Translations under genes and position numbers: made by a program | From: Bacillota bacterium | GTDB lineage: Bacteria; Patescibacteriota; Minisyncoccia; Phycocordibacterales; Phycocordibacteraceae | NCBI GenBank assembly: GCA_050260455.1 | Contig: JBLNCF010000015.1 | Location: 12,269-76,268, forward strand | Direction: 5' to 3' | Length of the DNA stretch: 64,000 nt | Shown here: one piece after another, positions 14,333 through 63,224 of the stretch | How the letters are laid out: each line of letters starts with the position of its first letter | Position numbering within the stretch: position 1 is the stretch's first letter | The notes under the pieces: model-generated | What the model saw: only the letters and a program-made list of their open reading frames with translations | Database searches by the model: none | Told to the model about the DNA's origin: nothing

Positions 14333-16030
<1,698 letters not shown>

Positions 16031-16622
16031 AGAATAGGCGGAACACAAGAAATGATTTTCTTATTGTACCTACCTTTTGATTGTTGAATTACCTCGAAGG
16101 GTTTCGAGATAATTCTGCTCGTATTCAGTTTTCAAGGGTCGGGCTGTCCCACGACAGCGCAAAAACTAGCCCGCCCCCATACGAGGGCGATAGGCACATA
16201 CTATAGGAAGCCGTATAGGGAGTCAAGCGGCGCAGCAGGCCCGTAACATGGCCATATTTGACGCCACTACATTCTTATGTCATCATCACGCCAGCCGACA
16301 CAGGAGATACTGCCGATGCCGTTTAAACGACGGGGTGCTCGTCCTTCGCACCTGACCCTGGTCCAAAGCACATCAGCGACCAGTACCCCAGAGCCTGCAC
16401 GGAAGTCATTGTATACCTTCCTCTGCGAGGAAGATTCGTTCCTACTCCCGCCCAACTTGGGGAGCATTGCCCCACCCGCCGAGTTTGATGAACTTGATTT
16501 CTTGGGGTTTGAGACCTGAACATTCCTGCAGCCGATCGAAGGAGCGCGAGCAACCCTCGCGCTTTTTCTTTGAATACACTTTCTTATTTCCACAAGTTGC
16601 CTCCCCGGGACAGAGGCGTAGA

Positions 16623-28317: not shown

Positions 28318-28399
28318 GCGCGTCGTATCGATCGCGTCCACATGAATACGCAAATAGGTGCACTCACTTAACTTGTTTGTGACGCACAGAGTTCCGCAC

Positions 28400-31875
<3,476 letters not shown>

Positions 31876-49544: not shown

Positions 49545-50975
49545 CTATGTCAAACGTGGGAAAAGATTCTCGGGCTTCTTGTTCTGCTTTACTGCTTCAA
49601 GAATTGCTTCGCTTGTTGCAGGCATGACGGGGGCGAGGTGCCCAGCAACCTTAGCCAGGTGCCGGACTAACTTCTCTATATCTGCACGAGCTTCATCTTT
49701 CGTTGCTTCATTCTTAATCTTCTTATACGGCTCCCGAGACGTCATAAATTCGTCGCCCTTACCGATATGTTCCCAGATGATATCCATGGCCTCATTAAAA
49801 CGGAATCCGTCCAATGTTTCTGCGAATGACCGTTCAATCGTAGCGTCGACACCATCGATAGGACCCGGCAAATGCTCTTCCGCGAGCTTCATCACACGAG
49901 CCACTAGGTTACCAAGACCATTTACGAGATTTGCGGTGTACCACTCATCAAGTCGCTCCCAGGTCATGTCGGAGTCCTCGGTCGGGTGCACATGACGGAG
50001 CAAGATATAGCGAGTCGCGTCCGTACCGTACTTCTTTACGAGATCATAGGGACTGATGACATTGCCAAGTGACTTACTCATCTTTTGTCCCCCTGACGTA
50101 ATGAAGCCGTGGATAAAGATGCGGTCGGAATTCTTAATACCGGACGACAGGAGCATGGCCTGCCACATCAGCGCCTGGAACCGCACCTGGTCCTTCCCTG
50201 CCATCTGGAGAGTGGCACCGTGCTCCCAGAACTTTTCGAACTTTCCGGTGGCATCCTCGGGCCAACCGAGAGTAGAAATATAATCAGTGAGTGCATCGAA
50301 CCACACATACATCACCTGGGATTCGTCATCGGGAACCGGCACACCCCACGATAGACGGCTCGCTTCGCGCGAGATACTGAAATCCTCGACGCCCTGCTTC
50401 GCAAACTCAAGTGCTTCCTCACGACGCGATTCGGGGAATACGACACCCGGACGATTCAGATATTCGATGAGAGCGTCCTGGTATTTACTGAATCGGAAGA
50501 AATAATTCTCTTCTTCCACAGTCTGGAGTGGGAGGTACGGGTGGACGATGCAGTGGTTACCCTCAAGCTCGCGCTCTGTCTTGAAGGCTTCACAGCCCAC
50601 GCAATAAAGGCCCGTGTACTTCTTCTTATAGATATCGCCTGCAGCGGCACAGCGGCGCCACATCTCCTGGGCCGCTCGTTTATGACTCTCATCCGTCGTA
50701 CGAATGAACGCATCATTACTCAACGCGAGCGCTCCGTGCAGTTTCTTGAACTCTTCGGCGTAATGATCCACATACTCCTTTACGTCCTGTCCTTTCTTGA
50801 GCGCTGCCTCCCAAATCTTCTGGCCATGTTCATCGGTACCGGTATTGAAAAAAACCTCTTCCCCAGCAAGACGCCAGAGACGTGCGAGCGCATCCGATTG
50901 CACGAACTCGAGCGCATGTCCCACATGCGGATCGGAGTTTACATACGGGAGCGTGGTGGTGATGTACCGAGACAT
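49545..50975 (-). CDS. metG: Methionyl-tRNA synthetase (short form, no C-terminal dimerisation/tRNA-binding appendix).
   Basis: 476 aa. YITTTLPYVNSDPHVGHALE (HIGH-class motif) and KMSKSLGNVISP (KMSKS). Confidence 0.9.
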   Translation of the reverse strand: MSRYITTTLPYVNSDPHVGHALEFVQSDALARLWRLAGEEVFFNTGTDEHGQKIWEAALKKGQDVKEYVDHYAEEFKKLHGALALSNDAFIRTTDESHKRAAQEMWRRCAAAGDIYKKKYTGLYCVGCEAFKTERELEGNHCIVHPYLPLQTVEEENYFFRFSKYQDALIEYLNRPGVVFPESRREEALEFAKQGVEDFSISREASRLSWGVPVPDDESQVMYVWFDALTDYISTLGWPEDATGKFEKFWEHGATLQMAGKDQVRFQALMWQAMLLSSGIKNSDRIFIHGFITSGGQKMSKSLGNVISPYDLVKKYGTDATRYILLRHVHPTEDSDMTWERLDEWYTANLVNGLGNLVARVMKLAEEHLPGPIDGVDATIERSFAETLDGFRFNEAMDIIWEHIGKGDEFMTSREPYKKIKNEATKDEARADIEKLVRHLAKVAGHLAPVMPATSEAILEAVKQNKKPENLFPRLT

Positions 50976-55738: not shown

Positions 55739-56299
55739 CTACAGACTCGAAGCCGCGATACCGCGATTAATACGAGAAATAATATGAGCGCGCCGTTCGG
55801 TCACATACACACGCGCATCTGGGCCATACCCCGGGGGCGGCAGTTCTCCGGCGTCGAGACCAAGGGCAGAAAGGAGTCGCAACACCACCAGAGACTCAAC
55901 AGCCTCCCCTTCTTCTGACGGAGCCTCTCCGAGTGCGAGTAGAAACTCGGTGAACGAAGTGTGGAGTGATGGATCATCGGATTCTCCATGTACAAGTCGG
56001 AGTAGCAGTCCCGAAACCCGTGCGATACGAGCCCGTGCTTCCTGACCCAGCCCCACAAAACGATCTTCGGCGAGCACCGCACCCGTAACACGCCACCCCT
56101 CTTTGCCTCGCACGAGCATGATGTCGGATTCGTTGAGCGCCTGGAGTGCGTGCGCAAGCTTCGCACCCGAGCGGCGCACACCTTCCGCCCTTGCACGGAT
56201 AAGTCCCAATTCTGGAGTAAGCAGTGTCACAAGCATGCCCGCTTCCGCGATTGGCACGCGGGCAAGGACGAGCGCGGGCGTGGCGTATTTATGACGCAT
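55739..56299 (-). CDS. recO: DNA repair protein RecO; start taken at Met29, which overlaps the ileS stop by about 11 nt.
   Basis: ATPALVLARVPIAEAGMLVTLLTPELGLIRARAEGVRRSGAKLAHALQ is an N-terminal OB-fold RecO signature. Length is about 186 aa. Confidence 0.65.
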   Translation of the reverse strand: MRHKYATPALVLARVPIAEAGMLVTLLTPELGLIRARAEGVRRSGAKLAHALQALNESDIMLVRGKEGWRVTGAVLAEDRFVGLGQEARARIARVSGLLLRLVHGESDDPSLHTSFTEFLLALGEAPSEEGEAVESLVVLRLLSALGLDAGELPPPGYGPDARVYVTERRAHIISRINRGIAASSL

Positions 56300-59200
56300 C
56301 GACTCGGATGGAGAATCCGATCGGACCGCTTGAGAGTTCCGCGCGGTACTGATCAGCATCAGCGAACGATATAGAAGAGACACCTGTGAGGTTTATACCA
56401 GAGAGAACCTCCTCCCCAGCTGGGCTCACCATGAGGGTCACTGTGTCGCGAGGTGAGAGCCCCAGATCTTTGCGGGCATCAGCAAGCGCGCGCGCAAACT
56501 CTCGCACATCTCCCTCACGTATAAGCTCAGGAGTGAGAGTGGTGTCGAGGGTAAGCGCCTCTGCGTTCATAATGATCTCCTTCACATTTACCTCGTCGGC
56601 AAGCAGCTGCGCGAGCTCCTTAGGAAGTGCCGCGGGTATGGAAAGCGAAGAAAGCGGCTGACGCACCTTCACTCCTGCCTGCTGACGAGCGCGAAGTGCC
56701 TCGGAGGCAAGCTCGCGTACCTGACCCATACCCACCACAAGCTCATTGTCTACGGTTCCTGGCTCATACCAGTCCGCAAGATGCACACTTTCAGGATCGG
56801 TGTCTTCTCGGACCGCTTGATAGGTCCACTCGGCAATAAAGGGGGCGAGCGGTGCCATAAGTACGGCAATCGCCTGGAGTGTGTCACGCAGTGTTGTTAT
56901 GGCAGCAACGTCGCCGTCGCGCACACGGTCGCGCACACGTCGCACATACCATTGCGAAAGATCTTCGATGAGACCGGCAACGGTACGTGCAGCAGTGTAG
57001 AGATCGTAGGCGTCGAGTGCAGCGGTCGCCTGTCCTATGGACTCCGACGTGCGCACTCTCATCCAGGTGTCGATCACTTCTTCTGTACCCTTTCCTTCTG
57101 CACCAGCAAAGAGCTGGTAGAACTTGACGCTGTTCTCGAGCCAGGAAATAACGCGTGCAGCTTCCTTCACCGTTTTCTCGTCGAAGTTCTTGCTGTCGCC
57201 CGGTTGGTTCACGCTGTACATCCAGAACCGAAGCGTGTCGGCGCCATATCGGTCGACCGCCTTCAAAGGCTCGATGACGTTGCCTTTCGATTTACTCATC
57301 TTCTGTCCTTTCTCATCCAGCAAGTGGCCGAGACAAATCACATTTTTGTACGCACGGTCCTTCCCCATAAGGACACCTACCGCAAGCAGGGTGTAGAACC
57401 AGCCGCGAGTTTGGTCGATAGCTTCAGAGATGAAATCGGCTGGAAAACCCTTCTCATCGATCCATTCCTTGTTTTCGAACGGATAGTGGTCCTGCGCAAA
57501 CGGCATGGCGCCCGAGTCAAACCACACGTCCATCACTTCCTTTACGCGGCGAAGTTCATTCCCCGAATCCGCAACAAGTACTACGTCATCAATGTACGGA
57601 CGATGGAGATCGAGTTCGTAATCATCGTTGTGTGGAAGCGGAGTGAACTCGAGCTCAACGGGTTCGCCACATTCAGGATTACATGCACAGCCCATATCCA
57701 TAGAGGCGATCTTATCTGCTCCGACAGCGACAGCTGGGAGCGTCTCAAGCATGATGCCGTGGCTCACGACAAGAATGTTTTCATTTGCGTGCTCACGTTC
57801 GAGGCGGTAGAGGAAGGAACCGAAGCGGGTCTTCGCGTCCTGGTAGCTCTCACCGCCGGGGATTTTATCGTCATACGCCATCGCGTCGCGTCGTTTGATG
57901 AACTCATCGCGTGATGATCCATCGAGGTCTCCGAAGTCGAGCTCACGCAACTGATCATCGAAGATGATGCGAGACCGATCAATGCCGAGCGTGTCAGCAA
58001 CAATTTCTGCAGTTTCCTTCGTTCGCTCGAACGGGGATGCGTAGATGGCAGTGATATCCGTATCCTTAAGTTGCGCAGCCCCCTTCTCTACTTGTGCTCG
58101 CCCCGTCGCAGTGAGCGGCCATTTCTTTGAGTTGGACGCATCAAGCGTATCTCTCGTATTGTTCTCTGCTTCTCCATGACGCATGAGGAAGTAGCGGTTA
58201 CCACTTCGCTTCGTGCGTTCCTTCAATTCATCGACAGAGCCGATAACGAGACGTTCGTTTCCGTCCTCGCTTTCCCATACCGGAAGCGGAGTTCCCCAGT
58301 ACCGTTCGCGAGAGATGGCCCATTCTTTCGCATTAGCGAGCCATTCGCCCATACGGCCGTCACGGATATACGAAGGCTCCCAGTTCACCTGGCCATTCTG
58401 TTCAAGCATCGTCTCGCGCAAGTCCTGCATACGAATGAACCATGAATCGCGTGCGTAGTAGATGAGGCGGTTCTTGCTGCGCCAGCAGTGCGGATAGGAG
58501 TGCTGATAATTCTCCTTTGAGAAAAAGAGTTCGCGTTCCTGCAGGTCCTTGAGAACAGCAATATTCGTTTCCGGTTCGATTACAGATGCACCTTCGAGGA
58601 ATCCTGTGCCAGCGATGAACTTCCCATCCGGAGCAACCAGATGCACCTTCGGCAAACCAAGTGCCTGACCAAGCTCGAAGTCGTCCTGTCCATACATGAC
58701 TGCGGTGTGCACGATGCCCGTACCGTCCTCGGTCGTAACGAAGTCTGCAGGATATACCTGGAAGGCCTTCTCGAATTTCGGTTTCTCACTCTCGGGAGCA
58801 AGCTTCTCGGCAAACGGGTAGAGAGGCTCGTATTCAAGACCCACTAATTCCCTTCCCTTTAGTTCCCTGTCGATGATGAGCGCATTAGGATTAGCGCCTG
58901 CGTGTACGATTGCATTTCTTGCCTTAGCAACAATGACGAGTTTGTTCTCTCCGTCTCGGCAAATCTGATAATCAATATCGGATCCCACGGCGAGAGCAAT
59001 ATTGCCCGGCAGCGTCCAGGGAGTGGTAGTCCATGCGAGTAGGTATACGTCTTCAGAGATACCCAACTTTTCGGAATTCTTAACTTTGAATTTCACCGTG
59101 AGGGAGAGATCTTTCACGTCTTCGTATCCCTGCGCAAGTTCGTGCGAAGAAAGTGCCGTGCCACAAACCGGACACCACGGGAGCACTTTGTAATCCTTAT

Positions 59201-59726
59201 ACAAACGTCCGTCGTCGTGAACCTTCTTCACGATCGAGAAGAGAGATTCCATATACGGGGGATCGAACGTGAAGTACGCATTATCCATATCGACCCAATA
59301 GCCGATGCGTTCGGTGAAACGCTCCCACTCATTGATGTACGTAAAGACGCTTTCCTTGCACTTCTTATTGAATGCGGCGACGCCGTACTCCTCAATATCC
59401 TTCTTGCCGGAGAATCCGAGCTGCTTCTCGACTTCAAGCTCCACCGGGAGACCATGCGTGTCCCAGCCCGCACGGCGCGGCACGCGAAAGCCACGCATAG
59501 TTTTATAGCGAGGTATCGCGTCCTTGAAGGCCCGTGCTTCGAGGTGATGCACGCCGGGCCGGCCATTAGCCGTCGGAGGGCCGTCGTAGAAGATAAACGT
59601 GTTCTTCTCTGATCCCCGCTCAAGGGACTTCTCGAAAATATGATTTTCCTTCCAGAACGCCAGGACTTCCTCCTCCCGCTTGGCGGCTTCGGACTTCTCT
59701 ACCGCATCAGTATCAATATCGGGCAT
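56289..59726 (-). CDS. ileS: Isoleucyl-tRNA synthetase with a roughly 155-aa histidine-phosphatase (phosphoglycerate-mutase-like) domain inserted between the catalytic core and the zinc-knuckle/KMSKS region.
   Basis: 1145 aa. FYDGPPTANGRPGVHH (HIGH-class), the editing domain (WTTTPWTLPGN), and KMSKSKGNVIEP. The inserted segment, residues about 510-665 (nt about 57732-58199), contains RYFLMRHGEAENN (RHG catalytic motif), ASPFERTKETAEIV and ILVVSHGIM (second catalytic His). It is flanked by IleRS-conserved YWGTPLPVW and DLHRPYIDDV...DVWFDSG. Confidence 0.9.
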   Translation of the reverse strand: MPDIDTDAVEKSEAAKREEEVLAFWKENHIFEKSLERGSEKNTFIFYDGPPTANGRPGVHHLEARAFKDAIPRYKTMRGFRVPRRAGWDTHGLPVELEVEKQLGFSGKKDIEEYGVAAFNKKCKESVFTYINEWERFTERIGYWVDMDNAYFTFDPPYMESLFSIVKKVHDDGRLYKDYKVLPWCPVCGTALSSHELAQGYEDVKDLSLTVKFKVKNSEKLGISEDVYLLAWTTTPWTLPGNIALAVGSDIDYQICRDGENKLVIVAKARNAIVHAGANPNALIIDRELKGRELVGLEYEPLYPFAEKLAPESEKPKFEKAFQVYPADFVTTEDGTGIVHTAVMYGQDDFELGQALGLPKVHLVAPDGKFIAGTGFLEGASVIEPETNIAVLKDLQERELFFSKENYQHSYPHCWRSKNRLIYYARDSWFIRMQDLRETMLEQNGQVNWEPSYIRDGRMGEWLANAKEWAISRERYWGTPLPVWESEDGNERLVIGSVDELKERTKRSGNRYFLMRHGEAENNTRDTLDASNSKKWPLTATGRAQVEKGAAQLKDTDITAIYASPFERTKETAEIVADTLGIDRSRIIFDDQLRELDFGDLDGSSRDEFIKRRDAMAYDDKIPGGESYQDAKTRFGSFLYRLEREHANENILVVSHGIMLETLPAVAVGADKIASMDMGCACNPECGEPVELEFTPLPHNDDYELDLHRPYIDDVVLVADSGNELRRVKEVMDVWFDSGAMPFAQDHYPFENKEWIDEKGFPADFISEAIDQTRGWFYTLLAVGVLMGKDRAYKNVICLGHLLDEKGQKMSKSKGNVIEPLKAVDRYGADTLRFWMYSVNQPGDSKNFDEKTVKEAARVISWLENSVKFYQLFAGAEGKGTEEVIDTWMRVRTSESIGQATAALDAYDLYTAARTVAGLIEDLSQWYVRRVRDRVRDGDVAAITTLRDTLQAIAVLMAPLAPFIAEWTYQAVREDTDPESVHLADWYEPGTVDNELVVGMGQVRELASEALRARQQAGVKVRQPLSSLSIPAALPKELAQLLADEVNVKEIIMNAEALTLDTTLTPELIREGDVREFARALADARKDLGLSPRDTVTLMVSPAGEEVLSGINLTGVSSISFADADQYRAELSSGPIGFSIRVDAS

Positions 59727-59813
59727 GATTTCCCTATCCTAGCTTCTCCCTCATGAAAATGGAACGGCCCGGCGCGCGATGCGCCGAGCCTGTGAATGTC
59801 CCTCCTGATCGAG

Positions 59814-60152
59814 TTAGTGTCGCTGGATTTTGGAGCGTTTGCGTTCCATCCGCCTTCGTTCCCGTCTGGACAAACGGTTTGGAGAATCCTGCTCCTCCTC
59901 CCCGGCGTGCTTTCGGGTCTTCCCTTCCATCACCGCCCGTTCGAACGGGATGATGAAGAATGGTTTGTGCTCCTTCCCTTCGACGATCGAAGCCTGGTAG
60001 GCAACGATTTGAGCATTCGCAGTCAGTTCGTCCACGTGCTGATGCTCCGCCTCACGTCGGAGAAACTCAATATCGTTGGCGCAGTCGGCCATCCGAGCGA
60101 GTTCTTGAACACGGGTGCGGGGCGCATCGGCCGAAGTCTCACAAGCGATCAC
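59814..60152 (-). CDS. Hypothetical small protein, 112 aa, with a strongly basic C-terminal tail, between argS and ileS.
   Basis: C-terminus RLSRRERRRMERKRSKIQRH. No domain match. Confidence 0.3.
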   Translation of the reverse strand: MIACETSADAPRTRVQELARMADCANDIEFLRREAEHQHVDELTANAQIVAYQASIVEGKEHKPFFIIPFERAVMEGKTRKHAGEEEQDSPNRLSRRERRRMERKRSKIQRH

Positions 60153-60231
60153 TCGTTCTCTCCCCTATCACACTGCACGGCATGTGCAGCCTGTGGGCTA
60201 CCCTATCGCACCCAGACGCACCCGGCAAGCG

Positions 60232-61911
60232 CTACATTCGCTCGGGTGTGGGTATCGCAAGGAGACGGAGGCCGTTCTCCATGGTCATAGCGAATGCGCG
60301 CGCAAGGGCCAGCTTATATCCTTCGTATTCTCCGCCGATGATACGTTCTTTGGCGTAGAAGGAGTTCCATTCTCCCGCGAGCTGCGTGAGGTATTGCGCA
60401 ACCTTGTGCGGCGCTTCTTCGGCGCATGCGAGCGCAGCCACTTCTGGGAACCGGATTATCACGCGTTCCAGGTCGTACACTTCTTCTGGTGCTCCCGTGT
60501 CCCGTTCTCCTTCTCCAGCCTGCGCAAGCACGGAACGAGCCCGGACGAGTGCGTACTGGAGATAGGGACCCGAGTCACCCTCGAGGGAGAGCGATTTTAC
60601 CGGATCGAAGATGATGTTTGCACCAGGCGCGCTTCGCAAGATCATATATTTAATTGCACCAATCGCCACCGCTTCCGCTATAAGCGGATCTGGATTTTTC
60701 TCGCTTGCGCGGCCAATAACATCCGTAATGAGTTCGGAGGCAGTGATGATATTCCCTTTGCGCGAGGCCATTTTGCCGGTCGTAAGCGTAAGGAAACCGG
60801 TCGCAATGTGACGGGTTTTCTCCGCGATGCGCGGAGCAATCTCCTCGAGAGCAGCCAGCACGGTACGGAACCTTCCCGTCTGCTCGTTACCCGTGACGAT
60901 GATGACCGTGTCATTCGGTATCTTCTCTTCGCGCAAGAAAGCCAGACCAATGTCCTTAGCCTCGTACGTAGGAGTGCCGCGGCTCGTGATGAAGACCATC
61001 GTGTGGACACCTTTTTCTTCGCCATCGTAAATGACCGCTCCGTCACTCTCTTTGAACACGCCTTTTCCTAAACCGTCACGGACAATACGGATTCCTGAAT
61101 CCCCCGTATCGCTATCAAAGAATTCATAGTCGAAATGCGTGTCCACCGTCTTCCATATCCGACGGAACTCTTCCATCGACACTTCGCGTCCCTTGCGCCA
61201 AAGCGCAAGAAGCATGCGCTCCTCGTCAGTGAGTTCCTCGTCCTGTCGAGCTACCACGTCATAGATGCGGGTATTCAAGGCATCGATTTCTGCTTTCGCA
61301 GCTTCGCTCTCTTCGTATGCATTTGCACCCTGGATGTATGCGGCGCCGATTTCTGCAGCGCTCGCCACATCTGTCACACCTTTATTCTGAAGCGCCCACA
61401 AACATTTCGCGACGTTGGGTCCAATATCCCCGCCAAACGTGTCGCGAATGACTGTTGCACCGGAATTCTCAATCAATCTCGATACTGACTCACCGACAAT
61501 GGATCCCATGAGATGGCCAATGTGCATTTCTTTGAATGCATTGGGGTTTGAATATTCTATTGAAACGCGTTTCCCTTCCGCAGCACTACCGCGACCCCAG
61601 CCGCTCCCGAGTTCAGCGACCTCTTTCACTATCCCGGATATGACCGGACGCGCGAGCGTGAAGTTAATGAATCCAGGACCTGCAACCTCGATCGAGGAAA
61701 CCTGATGCGTAAGCGTAGTGCGCAGTGCGAGAACAAGCTCATCGGCGAGCTCGCGTGGATTCTTTCCAAGTGCTTTGGCTGCCGCCATTGCAGCGTTCGT
61801 AGCGTAGTCGCCATGAGCGAGAGTAGCCGGCCACTCCACGACAAATGCAGTGTCTGGCGCTCCCGCAGCGGCAAGCGCTTCGGCAATAGCCTTTCGCAGC
61901 GTTTCTTCCAT
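60232..61911 (-). CDS. argS: Arginyl-tRNA synthetase.
   Basis: 559 aa. HIGHLMGSIVGESV (HIGH) and MASRKGN (KMSK variant). N-terminal Add-1 and C-terminal DALR anticodon-binding regions. Confidence 0.9.
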   Translation of the reverse strand: MEETLRKAIAEALAAAGAPDTAFVVEWPATLAHGDYATNAAMAAAKALGKNPRELADELVLALRTTLTHQVSSIEVAGPGFINFTLARPVISGIVKEVAELGSGWGRGSAAEGKRVSIEYSNPNAFKEMHIGHLMGSIVGESVSRLIENSGATVIRDTFGGDIGPNVAKCLWALQNKGVTDVASAAEIGAAYIQGANAYEESEAAKAEIDALNTRIYDVVARQDEELTDEERMLLALWRKGREVSMEEFRRIWKTVDTHFDYEFFDSDTGDSGIRIVRDGLGKGVFKESDGAVIYDGEEKGVHTMVFITSRGTPTYEAKDIGLAFLREEKIPNDTVIIVTGNEQTGRFRTVLAALEEIAPRIAEKTRHIATGFLTLTTGKMASRKGNIITASELITDVIGRASEKNPDPLIAEAVAIGAIKYMILRSAPGANIIFDPVKSLSLEGDSGPYLQYALVRARSVLAQAGEGERDTGAPEEVYDLERVIIRFPEVAALACAEEAPHKVAQYLTQLAGEWNSFYAKERIIGGEYEGYKLALARAFAMTMENGLRLLAIPTPERM

Positions 61912-61928: not shown

Positions 61929-63224
61929 TTAGAAGGATTCTGGAATCGGGTGCGCTTCGGCCAGTTCCTTGATACGCTTCCCGGCCTTCTCGACCGTCGC
62001 ATCATCGCGATTCTTAAGAATCTCGAGCATGAGCTCGGCCACTTCACGTGATTCGGTCTCTTTGAAACCGCGGGTGGTCATGGCAGGCGTACCGAACCGG
62101 ATACCAGACGGGTCGAACGGTTTACGTTCATCGTTCGCAATACTGTTCTTATTGAGCGTGATGCCAGCACGATCGAGAAGCGTCTCTGCTTCCCCGCCCG
62201 AGATACCCAGCGAACTCCATACGTCGGCAAGGATGAGGTGGTTGTCTGTACCGCCTGTAATGAGTCGTACGCCACCTTCGTTGAAGACGTCTGCCATTGT
62301 TTTCGCGTTTGCGACCACCTGCTCTGCATACACTTTGAACGACGGTTCGCTTGCCTCCCGAAGCGCGACTGCTTTTGCAGCAATTTGATGCATATGCGGA
62401 CCACCCTGAAAGCCGGGAAAAACACTGCGATCAATAAGTGTTGGCAGGTTCTCCATAGTCTTTTCGGGAGCCTTGAGTGGGTTACCCACGACACCCTTTG
62501 AGAGGATCATTGCGCCACGCGGACCACGAAGCGTCTTGTGCGTTGTGGTGGTCATGATGTTGAAACCGTAGTCGAGTGGATTCTTCGCAACACCCCCGGC
62601 GATAAGACCCGCGATATGCGCCACATCTGCCATGGCGACCGCATCCACTTCCCGGGCAATAGCAGCGATGCGCTCCCAATCGAGCTCACGCGGATATCCG
62701 GAGAACCCGGCGAGCACGATCTTCGGACGCTCGCGCTTGGCGGTTTCAAACATCTGATCGTAATCAATCTCGCCCGTGTCCGGGTCTTTCATGCCGTATC
62801 GCACGAAATTGAACAGCTTGGTCATGTAGGTGACCGGAGATCCATGCGTCAGGTGGCCGCCATGAGCCAGATCCATACCGAGCACGGTGTCACCTGGTTC
62901 AAGCCAGGCAAAGTACGCGGCGATGTTTGCCGCTGCTCCTCCGAGCGGCTGCACGTTTGCATGATCTGCACGAAAGAGAGTTTTGGCACGTTCGATTGCG
63001 AGAGTCTCTATCTGATCGGTAAACTCCTGACCGCCGTAGTAACGCTTGCCGGGGTAGCCTTCGGAATACTTGTTCGTGAGCGCAGACGACATCGCCTCGC
63101 GTACGGCCTGCGATACGTAGTTCTCGGAAGGAATGAGTTCGAGTCCCTCGGCCTGGCGCGTCTCTTCGCCCTCAAGGAGTGCGTTGAGTTCAGGATCTTC
63201 AGAATGGATATGGGGGTACGGCAT
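61929..63224 (-). CDS. glyA: Serine hydroxymethyltransferase.
   Basis: 431 aa. LELIPSENYVSQAVREAMSSALTNKYSEGYPGKRYYGG and the PLP-lysine motif TTTTHKTLRGPRG. Confidence 0.95.
   Translation of the reverse strand: MPYPHIHSEDPELNALLEGEETRQAEGLELIPSENYVSQAVREAMSSALTNKYSEGYPGKRYYGGQEFTDQIETLAIERAKTLFRADHANVQPLGGAAANIAAYFAWLEPGDTVLGMDLAHGGHLTHGSPVTYMTKLFNFVRYGMKDPDTGEIDYDQMFETAKRERPKIVLAGFSGYPRELDWERIAAIAREVDAVAMADVAHIAGLIAGGVAKNPLDYGFNIMTTTTHKTLRGPRGAMILSKGVVGNPLKAPEKTMENLPTLIDRSVFPGFQGGPHMHQIAAKAVALREASEPSFKVYAEQVVANAKTMADVFNEGGVRLITGGTDNHLILADVWSSLGISGGEAETLLDRAGITLNKNSIANDERKPFDPSGIRFGTPAMTTRGFKETESREVAELMLEILKNRDDATVEKAGKRIKELAEAHPIPESF

Follow-up and report, generated by a model that had tools for sequence, protein, structure and literature searches.

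A predicted histidine phosphatase nested in the catalytic domain of type-2 isoleucyl-tRNA synthetases from bacteria of the candidate phyla radiation

Few enzymes are as conserved or as well studied as the aminoacyl-tRNA synthetases (aaRSs), and the extra domains known in them are mostly RNA-binding, editing, or protein-interaction modules located at the termini. Here we describe an isoleucyl-tRNA synthetase (IleRS) gene, ileS, found in a 64,000-nucleotide stretch (referred to below as the window) of contig JBLNCF010000015.1 (positions 12,269 to 76,268 of the forward strand; assembly GCA_050260455.1), whose product carries a histidine phosphatase domain inside its catalytic domain. The closest described synthetases are the type-2 enzymes (IleRS2) of Priestia megaterium (PDB entries 8C8U, 8C8V, and 8C8W) and Thermus thermophilus (1ILE), which have the same HUP/Rossmann core and the same editing, anticodon-binding, and type-2 C-terminal domains as the window protein. 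The closest described phosphatases are PhoE (1H2E/1EBB), PspA (4IJ5/4IJ6), CobC (6NRU/6E4B), and TIGAR, with the same fold (template modeling [TM] score, 0.7 to 0.83), the same size (~200 residues including the cap), and the same catalytic residues as the inserted domain. These phosphatases stand alone, whereas the domain in the window is nested inside another enzyme. Likewise, 8C8W has two residues at the tip of a hairpin where the window protein has an enzyme domain of ~194 residues, and the zinc-knuckle cysteines of 8C8W are lost in the window protein.

The ileS gene is a minus-strand open reading frame (ORF; 56289 to 59726; all coordinates given for its parts refer to the same strand) with a product of 1145 residues. 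An earlier note, made from the sequence alone, had described this product as an IleRS containing a contiguous histidine phosphatase block, and the ORF, a Pfam His_Phos_1 (PF00300) match, and the alignment to 8C8W bear this out. In that alignment, residues 13 to 504 correspond to chain residues 9 to 477 and residues 699 to 1051 to chain residues 480 to 847, so that the gap delimits the insert at aa 505 to 698 (57633 to 58214). The flanking IleRS motifs quoted in the note are in place on both sides (i.e., YWGTPLPVW at aa 476 to 484 and VIGSVDELKE at aa 494 to 503 before the insert; LDLHRPYIDD at aa 705 to 714 and DVWFDSG at aa 733 to 739 after it). The limits proposed for the block (aa 510 to 665) were too narrow, however, since the domain continues past residue 665 with its final helices and its final beta-strand.

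The PF00300 match (aa 513 to 671; E = 2.3e-35) lies between two stretches matching tRNA-synt_1 and scores far above the gathering threshold of 21.7 (122.5 bits with the whole protein; 126.8 bits with the insert alone). The insert is modeled with a predicted local distance difference test (pLDDT) value of 88 to 97 within the whole-protein model, and with a pLDDT of 92.9 and a predicted TM score of 0.90 when modeled alone with 17 relatives. The predicted model contains the complete alpha/beta fold, including the last strand, as expected for branch 1 of the histidine phosphatases. The best PDB superposition was with Hydrogenobacter PspA (4IJ6; TM, 0.83/0.80; root mean square deviation, 2.0 A; 194 aligned columns). 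Further full-length superpositions were obtained with PhoE, a riboflavin-pathway histidine-family phosphatase (HFP), CobC, TIGAR, and Rv2419c (TM, 0.73 to 0.83 across PspA, PhoE, HFP, and CobC), and bisphosphatase domains of PFKFB were also among the structural matches. The best PDB match by sequence was PhoE (E = 6e-14).

The full catalytic set of the family is present. It consists of R516 and the nucleophile H517 in the RHG motif (58173 to 58181), the phosphate-pocket asparagine N523 (58158 to 58160), the second phosphate-binding arginine R568 in an SPxxR motif (58023 to 58025), the predicted general acid/base E595 (57942 to 57944), and the second catalytic histidine H656 in an SHG/THG motif (57759 to 57761). 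The hallmarks pointed out earlier, i.e., the RHG-containing segment YFLMRHGEAENN (aa 512 to 523), ILVVSHG (aa 651 to 657), and the second arginine, are thus all where they were said to be. Among 43 relatives (overall identity, 63 to 71%), R516, H517, R568, and H656 are invariant (43/43), while N523 is kept in 42 and E595 in 42, with Asp in the remaining one. In a broader sample, taken from representatives of 50%-identity clusters, 135 of ~170 domain copies showed the RH-N-R-E-H signature, the others being mostly truncated fragments. Purifying selection has thus acted on the catalytic residues through deep divergence, and the phosphatase domain is very likely to be catalytically competent.

We consider it probable that the ileS product is a working IleRS2 into which a complete and competent PhoE/PspA/CobC-like branch-1 phosphatase was inserted long ago, at the tip of a small surface hairpin of the catalytic domain that separates the WGTPLP strand from the DVWFDSG strand. 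The synthetase part would activate isoleucine, charge tRNA-Ile, and edit as normal, while the inserted domain would hydrolyze a phosphomonoester by the standard mechanism of its family. In this mechanism, R516, R568, and N523 would hold the phosphate, H517 would attack it to form a phospho-histidine intermediate, and E595 and H656 would aid the departure of the leaving group and the hydrolysis of the intermediate.

The junctions of the domain are strongly conserved and nearly gap-free among the 43 relatives (KKSGN before the domain and PLPHN..YELDLHRP after it). The zinc-knuckle cysteines that flank the junction in 8C8W (WECEGC and CPVCS) are replaced here by ESEDG and VADSG and are retained in some other insert-bearing relatives, from which it appears that the insertion went into the tip of a small hairpin subdomain, which is a zinc knuckle in other IleRS2. 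A cysteine cluster (CACNPEC; aa 680 to 686; 57669 to 57689) had been reported to follow the phosphatase block. It is present, but it sits inside the phosphatase domain and is specific to this sequence; since its three Cys positions vary among 42 relatives, a zinc site as a family feature was rejected. An intein-like element was considered on account of the "HN" at the C-terminal junction and was likewise rejected, given the histidine phosphatase fold and the Asp, in place of a Cys, Ser, or Thr, that follows "HN."

The synthetase scaffold itself is that of a genuine type-2 IleRS and is intact. The product scores 848.4 bits with the NCBIfam isoleucine--tRNA ligase equivalog TIGR00392 (cutoff, 621.4), in two stretches owing to the insert, and its Pfam matches comprise tRNA-synt_1 in two stretches (the first at aa 21 to 508), Anticodon_1 (aa 886 to 1026), and DUF5915 (aa 1058 to 1102). 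The P. megaterium structure 8C8W was the best PDB match by sequence (E = 2.5e-226) and was also matched by the whole-protein model in Foldseek (E = 6e-69), and at aa 200 to 413 there is a match to 1WK8, the T. thermophilus editing domain. The C-terminal organization is of type 2, with DUF5915 and with best matches to IleRS2 and MupA/MupB-type enzymes rather than to IleRS1 with its type-1 Zn-binding domain. The N-terminal part (aa 1 to 504; 58215 to 59726) holds the first half of the Rossmann/HUP fold, the CP1/editing domain, the helical CP region, the WGTPLP strand, and the first hairpin arm. The C-terminal part (aa 699 to 1145; 56292 to 57632), which aligns to 8C8W residues 480 to 847 and extends beyond them, holds the second hairpin arm (DLHRP), the WFDSG strand, the KMSKS loop, and the anticodon-binding and type-2 C-terminal domains. 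Both class I signatures are present, i.e., GVHH, a noncanonical variant of HIGH (aa 58 to 61; 59544 to 59555), and KMSKS (aa 809 to 813; 57288 to 57302). These two motifs, the threonine-rich editing motif TTTPWT (aa 233 to 238; 59013 to 59030), and GTGIVH (GTGxVH; aa 335 to 340) are invariant across the 43 relatives, and the WGTPLP and DVWFDSG strands are likewise invariant in the family alignment. The HIGH region has the consensus RPGVHH in these relatives, with H61 invariant, and wild-type P. megaterium IleRS2 has the same GVHH variant. Since the [A/G]XHH form of HIGH in IleRS2 has been reported to confer mupirocin hyper-resistance (preprint 10.64898/2026.02.03.703510), the GVHH-bearing IleRS family of these bacteria is predicted to be hyper-resistant.

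The architecture is widespread. More than 240 distinct 90%-identity protein clusters from NCBI, JGI, ENA, and Logan assemblies share it in frame, and most of these are named Paceibacteria or Parcubacteria, i.e., bacteria of the candidate phyla radiation (CPR). PF00300 was found in all of the best 120 clusters retrieved with the window protein (120/120) and again in all of a further 120 clusters (120/120) retrieved with a relative that is 45% identical to it in the junction region; the named members of the second set are Paceibacterota, Taylorbacteria, or Parcubacteria. When the insert with short flanks was compared with 1.84 billion 50%-identity representatives, 48 matches were obtained at E <= 1e-30. 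Among the best 150 representatives, 105 have the domain in an IleRS context, with insert identity down to ~33%, ~39 are stand-alone phosphatases of one or two domains, and none has it hosted by another aaRS. Among the matches listed for GTDB species genomes, the long junction occurs in at least 21 loci labeled Patescibacteria, Paceibacteria, Minisyncoccia, Yanofskybacteria, Spechtbacterales, or Peregrinibacteria/Peribacteria, while the IleRS2 of Bacteroidota, Bacillota, and others have a short junction without the insert. From this distribution, the insert-bearing IleRS appears to be an old lineage trait of CPR bacteria.

The unusual length of the protein, and nothing else, could suggest an assembly or annotation artefact, i.e., a chimeric contig that fuses ileS to a phosphatase gene. 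This explanation is already refuted, and we give it practically no credence. The exact protein is present at NCBI on a 79-kb contig, the junctions are conserved, the G+C content across the insert (0.52 to 0.55) is unremarkable and shows no compositional break, and the recurrence of this architecture in more than 240 independent, nonidentical clusters rules out a chimera. The description in the earlier note thus withstood both of the outcomes that it had named as refuting (a failed PF00300 match or fold prediction, and a misassembly): the profile matches far over threshold, the full phosphatase fold is predicted while a match to IleRS2 structures (8C8W) is retained by the IleRS part, and recurrence in hundreds of assemblies rules out a misassembly.

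Taxon labels of metagenome-assembled genomes (MAGs) are unreliable, and two sets of labels call for comment. The protein identical to that of the window (P0001) is labeled "MAG: Bacillota bacterium" at NCBI. This label of the record is probably wrong, with Paceibacteria (CPR) indicated instead, because the named relatives are Parcubacteria, Paceibacterota, or Patescibacteria and because the rRNA features of the window point to CPR. The 23S rRNA gene (28394 to 31861, minus strand) spans 3468 nt (model, 2925 nt), and a group I intron (28796 to 29049; 88.9 bits) lies within it. This rRNA gene is unlinked to the 16S rRNA gene (14573 to 16032, minus strand), with ~12 kb of protein-coding genes between the two, and both the unlinked genes and the intron-bearing 23S rRNA are further hallmarks of CPR. 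A tRNA-Ile(GAT) gene is located just downstream of the 16S rRNA gene. ARAGORN and Rfam also reported a 96-nt "tRNA-Glu(TTC)" (30453 to 30548, minus strand) within the span of the 23S rRNA gene, which is probably a tRNA-like rRNA insertion or a false call. Similarly, we doubt the label "Candidatus Saccharibacteria" on four GTDB loci, given that the nearest relatives with names are Paceibacterota and Taylorbacteria.

In the branch of Gracilibacteria, Peregrinibacteria, and Peribacteria, the phosphatase domain occurs at no fewer than four IleRS positions. These are located between IGSxxELK and DLHRP (site A, as in the window protein), between DLHR and WFxSG (site B), between WFxSG and DQTRGWF (site C), and past KMSKS at the start of the anticodon-binding domain (site D). 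The insertion sites are concentrated in the latter half of the catalytic domain and where the anticodon-binding domain begins. One to four His_Phos copies are present per protein, and the six-residue signature is kept in every complete copy. Multicopy IleRS with two to four His_Phos_1 domains include P0160, P0164, P0199, P0210, P0247, P0126, and P0153 (loci L017 to L020). The A+B form was found in four Peribacteria/Peregrinibacteria species genomes, and the C+D form (P0164), whose relatives are named Gracilibacteria, Peregrinibacteria, or Peribacteria, was found in six assemblies with contigs reaching 1.06 Mb. Since the copies inside one protein are only 27 to 36% identical, whereas copies from different proteins group by site (A with A and B with B), the multicopy architectures appear to be old and stably inherited.

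Other domains are inserted in IleRS related to P0164, i.e., GNAT, a P-loop kinase (AAA_33/AAA_18/Zeta_toxin), an alpha/beta serine hydrolase, a DUF559 nuclease-like domain, and an IS200-like Y1 transposase (P0397, P0409, P0448, P0459, P0474, P0410, P0480, and P0185), some of them inside the editing region. The P-loop kinase is combined with His_Phos in P0459 and P0474, and one relative is named [quoted passage not shown] at JGI. P0458 (1504 aa) has no His_Phos domain; its site C (aa 566 to 975) is filled by a tandem pair of HAD phosphatases, both with an intact DxDG motif (aa 570 and 772). The core of this protein is 58 to 69% identical to that of P0164 and relatives, which hold His_Phos at that site. 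The presence of an unrelated phosphatase fold at the same site argues that phosphatase activity itself may be what is selected. As a side observation, the closest stand-alone relatives of the insert include ~410- to 450-aa proteins with two His_Phos_1 domains in tandem (P0208, P0218, P0224, P0226, P0228, P0232, P0244, P0246, P0250, P0251, P0261, P0262, and P0264; locus L081). The neighbors of one of these (P0228) are unrelated housekeeping genes, and its genome is not CPR-like.

We infer that the domain is enzymatically active and, further, that it acts in cis on something tied to the IleRS reaction rather than as an unrelated passenger; given catalytic competence, an IleRS-linked role and a passenger role are about evenly balanced. 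Coupling to IleRS is supported by the restriction of inserted cases to IleRS hosts among the best 150 representatives, the repeated placement of phosphatases, the HAD pair at the same site, the gap-free junctions, and the occasional P-loop kinase. As speculative candidate substrates, we would rank a phosphorylated tRNA end first (3'-phosphate, 2',3'-cyclic phosphate, or 3'-pyrophosphate), a small phosphorylated metabolite or nucleotide second, a phosphorylated inhibitor or amino acid analogue third, and phosphorylated IleRS itself fourth. The roles suggested in the earlier note, among them hydrolysis of Ap4A or of a phosphorylated tRNA end, resistance, and moonlighting, are equally speculative.

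Several observations weigh against a competent phosphatase that serves the synthetase in cis. The structural neighbors of the insert are all small-molecule enzymes. For every named equivalog, the score of the insert falls short of the cutoff, i.e., for the CobC alpha-ribazole phosphatase (81 to 85 bits versus 162.9), the PspA phosphoserine phosphatase (61 to 65 versus 350), SixA (39 versus 74.5), and the phosphoglycerate mutases dPGM_arch (78 to 80 versus 225), GpmB (71 to 75 versus 261), and pgm_1 (25 versus 82), so that superfamily membership, and not substrate specificity, can be transferred; the label "phosphoglycerate-mutase-like" given in the earlier note thus holds for the fold and fails at these cutoffs. 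The insert is acidic (net charge, -10; isoelectric point, 4.9) and not more basic than its stand-alone relatives, from which inserted domains did not differ in the charge analysis used as a proxy for RNA binding, and this does not favor direct RNA binding. The varied sites and the apparent beads-on-a-string arrangement of tandem copies argue against one precise active-site geometry and are equally compatible with a passenger enzyme. The co-inserted DUF559 and IS200-like Y1 domains look selfish, and the IleRS of these lineages may therefore merely tolerate insertions. The HAD replacement is represented by one protein cluster on one contig. A stand-alone His_Phos gene was found within 6 kb of ileS in none of 59 insert-less IleRS2 loci, so that gene neighborhood gives a functional link no independent support; the window holds no second His_Phos copy. 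As for the synthetase, the whole-protein model is weak near the HIGH and KMSKS regions (pLDDT <50), which we attribute to a shallow alignment of close relatives rather than to disorder.

Much of this evidence would suit a passenger or moonlighting enzyme, i.e., a housekeeping or metabolite-repair phosphatase that is lodged in a permissive loop of an essential, constitutive protein, is unconnected to isoleucylation, and is kept for its own usefulness (e.g., co-expression in genomes with few regulators). The closest characterized structures are capped small-molecule phosphatases, the domain is acidic, it occurs at several sites in one to four tandem copies, unrelated domains including nuclease- and transposase-like ones have entered related IleRS as well, and the closest stand-alone relatives are single- or tandem-domain proteins in unremarkable gene contexts. 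We regard such a passenger as a serious possibility that falls somewhat short of being probable, since among the best 150 cluster representatives the host of an inserted domain is always IleRS, two unrelated phosphatase folds occupy one site in close relatives, and the conserved, almost gap-free junctions suggest a fixed rather than a floppy attachment. At the other extreme, the domain could be a noncatalytic module that provides bulk, contacts RNA or protein, or binds a phosphometabolite for allosteric control of IleRS. Domain insertions in aaRSs are often binding modules, and conserved junctions would fit such a role, but pseudoenzymes usually lose their catalytic residues, whereas the six catalytic and pocket residues are kept here over hundreds of sequences and in all tandem copies despite 27 to 36% identity between copies. 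This makes a noncatalytic module very improbable.

If the activity is instead linked to isoleucylation, it might be a built-in repair of tRNA ends, in which a 3'-phosphate, a 2',3'-cyclic phosphate, or a toxin-added 3'-pyrophosphate is removed from bound tRNA-Ile to restore a chargeable CCA end. The specific choice of IleRS as host and the clustering of insertion sites in the second catalytic half and at the start of the anticodon-binding domain are in line with this, as is the pairing of phosphatase and P-loop kinase in P0459 and P0474, since a P-loop kinase and a phosphatase form the polynucleotide kinase-phosphatase pair that heals RNA ends. Toxic alarmone synthetases have been reported to pyrophosphorylate tRNAs at their 3'-CCA end and thereby to block charging, sometimes in a tRNA-specific manner (10.1101/2021.04.30.441581; PMC11559606). 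Nevertheless, tRNA end repair seems unlikely, as the branch-1 structural neighbors include no RNA-end phosphatase, the domain is acidic, neither the whole protein nor the insert matched any family of anti-phage defense models in PADLOC-DB, and an enzyme for general repair would more readily be expected to stand alone or to be joined to the CCA-adding enzyme. To our knowledge, moreover, no toxin specific for tRNA-Ile has been described. The phosphatase could alternatively detoxify at the target, inactivating an IleRS inhibitor or a toxic isoleucine analogue together with the GNAT, kinase, and hydrolase of relatives, or removing from IleRS a phosphate added by a kinase toxin. The acetyltransferase, P-loop kinase, serine hydrolase, and phosphatase inserted in related IleRS all belong to classic classes of small-molecule-modifying resistance enzymes, and HipA-type kinases phosphorylate other aaRSs near the KMSKS region, but we know of no kinase that targets IleRS. 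The GVHH motif, the form reported to give mupirocin hyper-resistance (in the preprint cited above and in the title of 8C8W), makes inhibitor pressure on the lineage plausible. All of this is circumstantial, and we hold detoxification to be quite unlikely. We also know of no natural IleRS inhibitor that is a phosphomonoester.

A competent phosphatase nested in a working IleRS2, our preferred reading, means that an unrelated and apparently active enzyme sits within the catalytic domain of an essential synthetase and has been retained over a very large uncultured radiation. The recurrence of phosphatases of two unrelated folds, in multiple copies and at various positions but always in IleRS, suggests a selected and undescribed second chemistry tied to isoleucine charging. 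Should this chemistry have a link to tRNA or inhibitors, translation in CPR bacteria would have a further, new level of quality control or conflict; should it have none, the protein is a natural example of the tolerance of an essential enzyme for a nested domain. It is also conceivable, though we think it doubtful, that the CPR IleRS is a platform for cis-acting accessory enzymes and that its nested phosphatase is the first case of an aaRS with its own activity for tRNA repair or against toxins. During charging, the phosphatase would then free tRNA-Ile of a 3'-phosphate, a cyclic phosphate, or a toxin-added pyrophosphate that blocks it, or IleRS of an inhibitory phosphate, and the GNAT, kinase, hydrolase, and HAD domains of sister lineages would be alternative tools in the same conflict. 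In any case, the phenomenon is broader than what the earlier note had seen: it takes in hundreds of clusters and four insertion sites, the copy number reaches four, and in one case HAD phosphatases stand in for the domain. It also carries a practical warning for annotation, in that insert-bearing IleRS are often filed under generic NCBI names; many are called only "class I tRNA ligase family protein."

The surroundings of ileS in the window contain other aaRS genes. The metG (short, 476 aa; 49545 to 50975), ileS, argS (60232 to 61911), and glyA (61929 to 63224) genes are all on the minus strand within 14 kb. A recO-like ORF (55739 to 56383) overlaps the end of ileS by ~95 nt, provided that its GTG start is real. 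The gap between argS and ileS (59727 to 60231; 505 bp) contains a 112-aa ORF (59814 to 60152, minus strand) and a strong GC-rich hairpin with a T-run (59790 to 59766, minus strand) ~40 nt ahead of the ileS start, which is best read as the terminator of the 112-aa ORF. A search for a leader RNA or T-box upstream of ileS gave no Rfam match even at E <= 1.

The claim that no such IleRS had been described holds for the searchable literature, but the sequences are abundant in databases with PF00300 annotations. A fusion of IleRS and phosphatase was not found described in the full-text literature, neither phosphatases nor CPR come up in a 2026 preprint on a survey of 96,219 IleRS sequences, and two papers on aaRS oddities of CPR do not mention IleRS. 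Among known systems, the RNase H/acid phosphatase (Rv2228c-type; PRK07238), which is the best NCBIfam match of the insert (88 to 92 bits), also joins His_Phos_1 to a nucleic acid enzyme. It differs in being an end-to-end rather than a nested fusion and in its partner enzyme, and the insert scores far below its cutoff of 326. A curated precedent for an IleRS with an extra enzyme domain is NF040702 ([quoted passage not shown]). Its extra domain, however, is GNAT rather than a phosphatase, and it represents a separate lineage, with the window protein (324 bits) and the GNAT-bearing CPR relatives (245 to 303 bits) scoring far below its cutoff of 1999. Pairs of kinase and phosphatase are known from 6-phosphofructo-2-kinase/fructose-2,6-bisphosphatase and from T4 polynucleotide kinase-phosphatase, the phosphatase of the latter being of the HAD type and not a histidine phosphatase. 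P0459 and P0474 resemble these pairs, whereas the window protein lacks a kinase and differs in domain order and host. Given that its sequences are already public with precomputed PF00300 hits and that extra aaRS domains are a known theme, we class the insert-bearing IleRS as a variant of that theme with an architecture of its own, hitherto undescribed.

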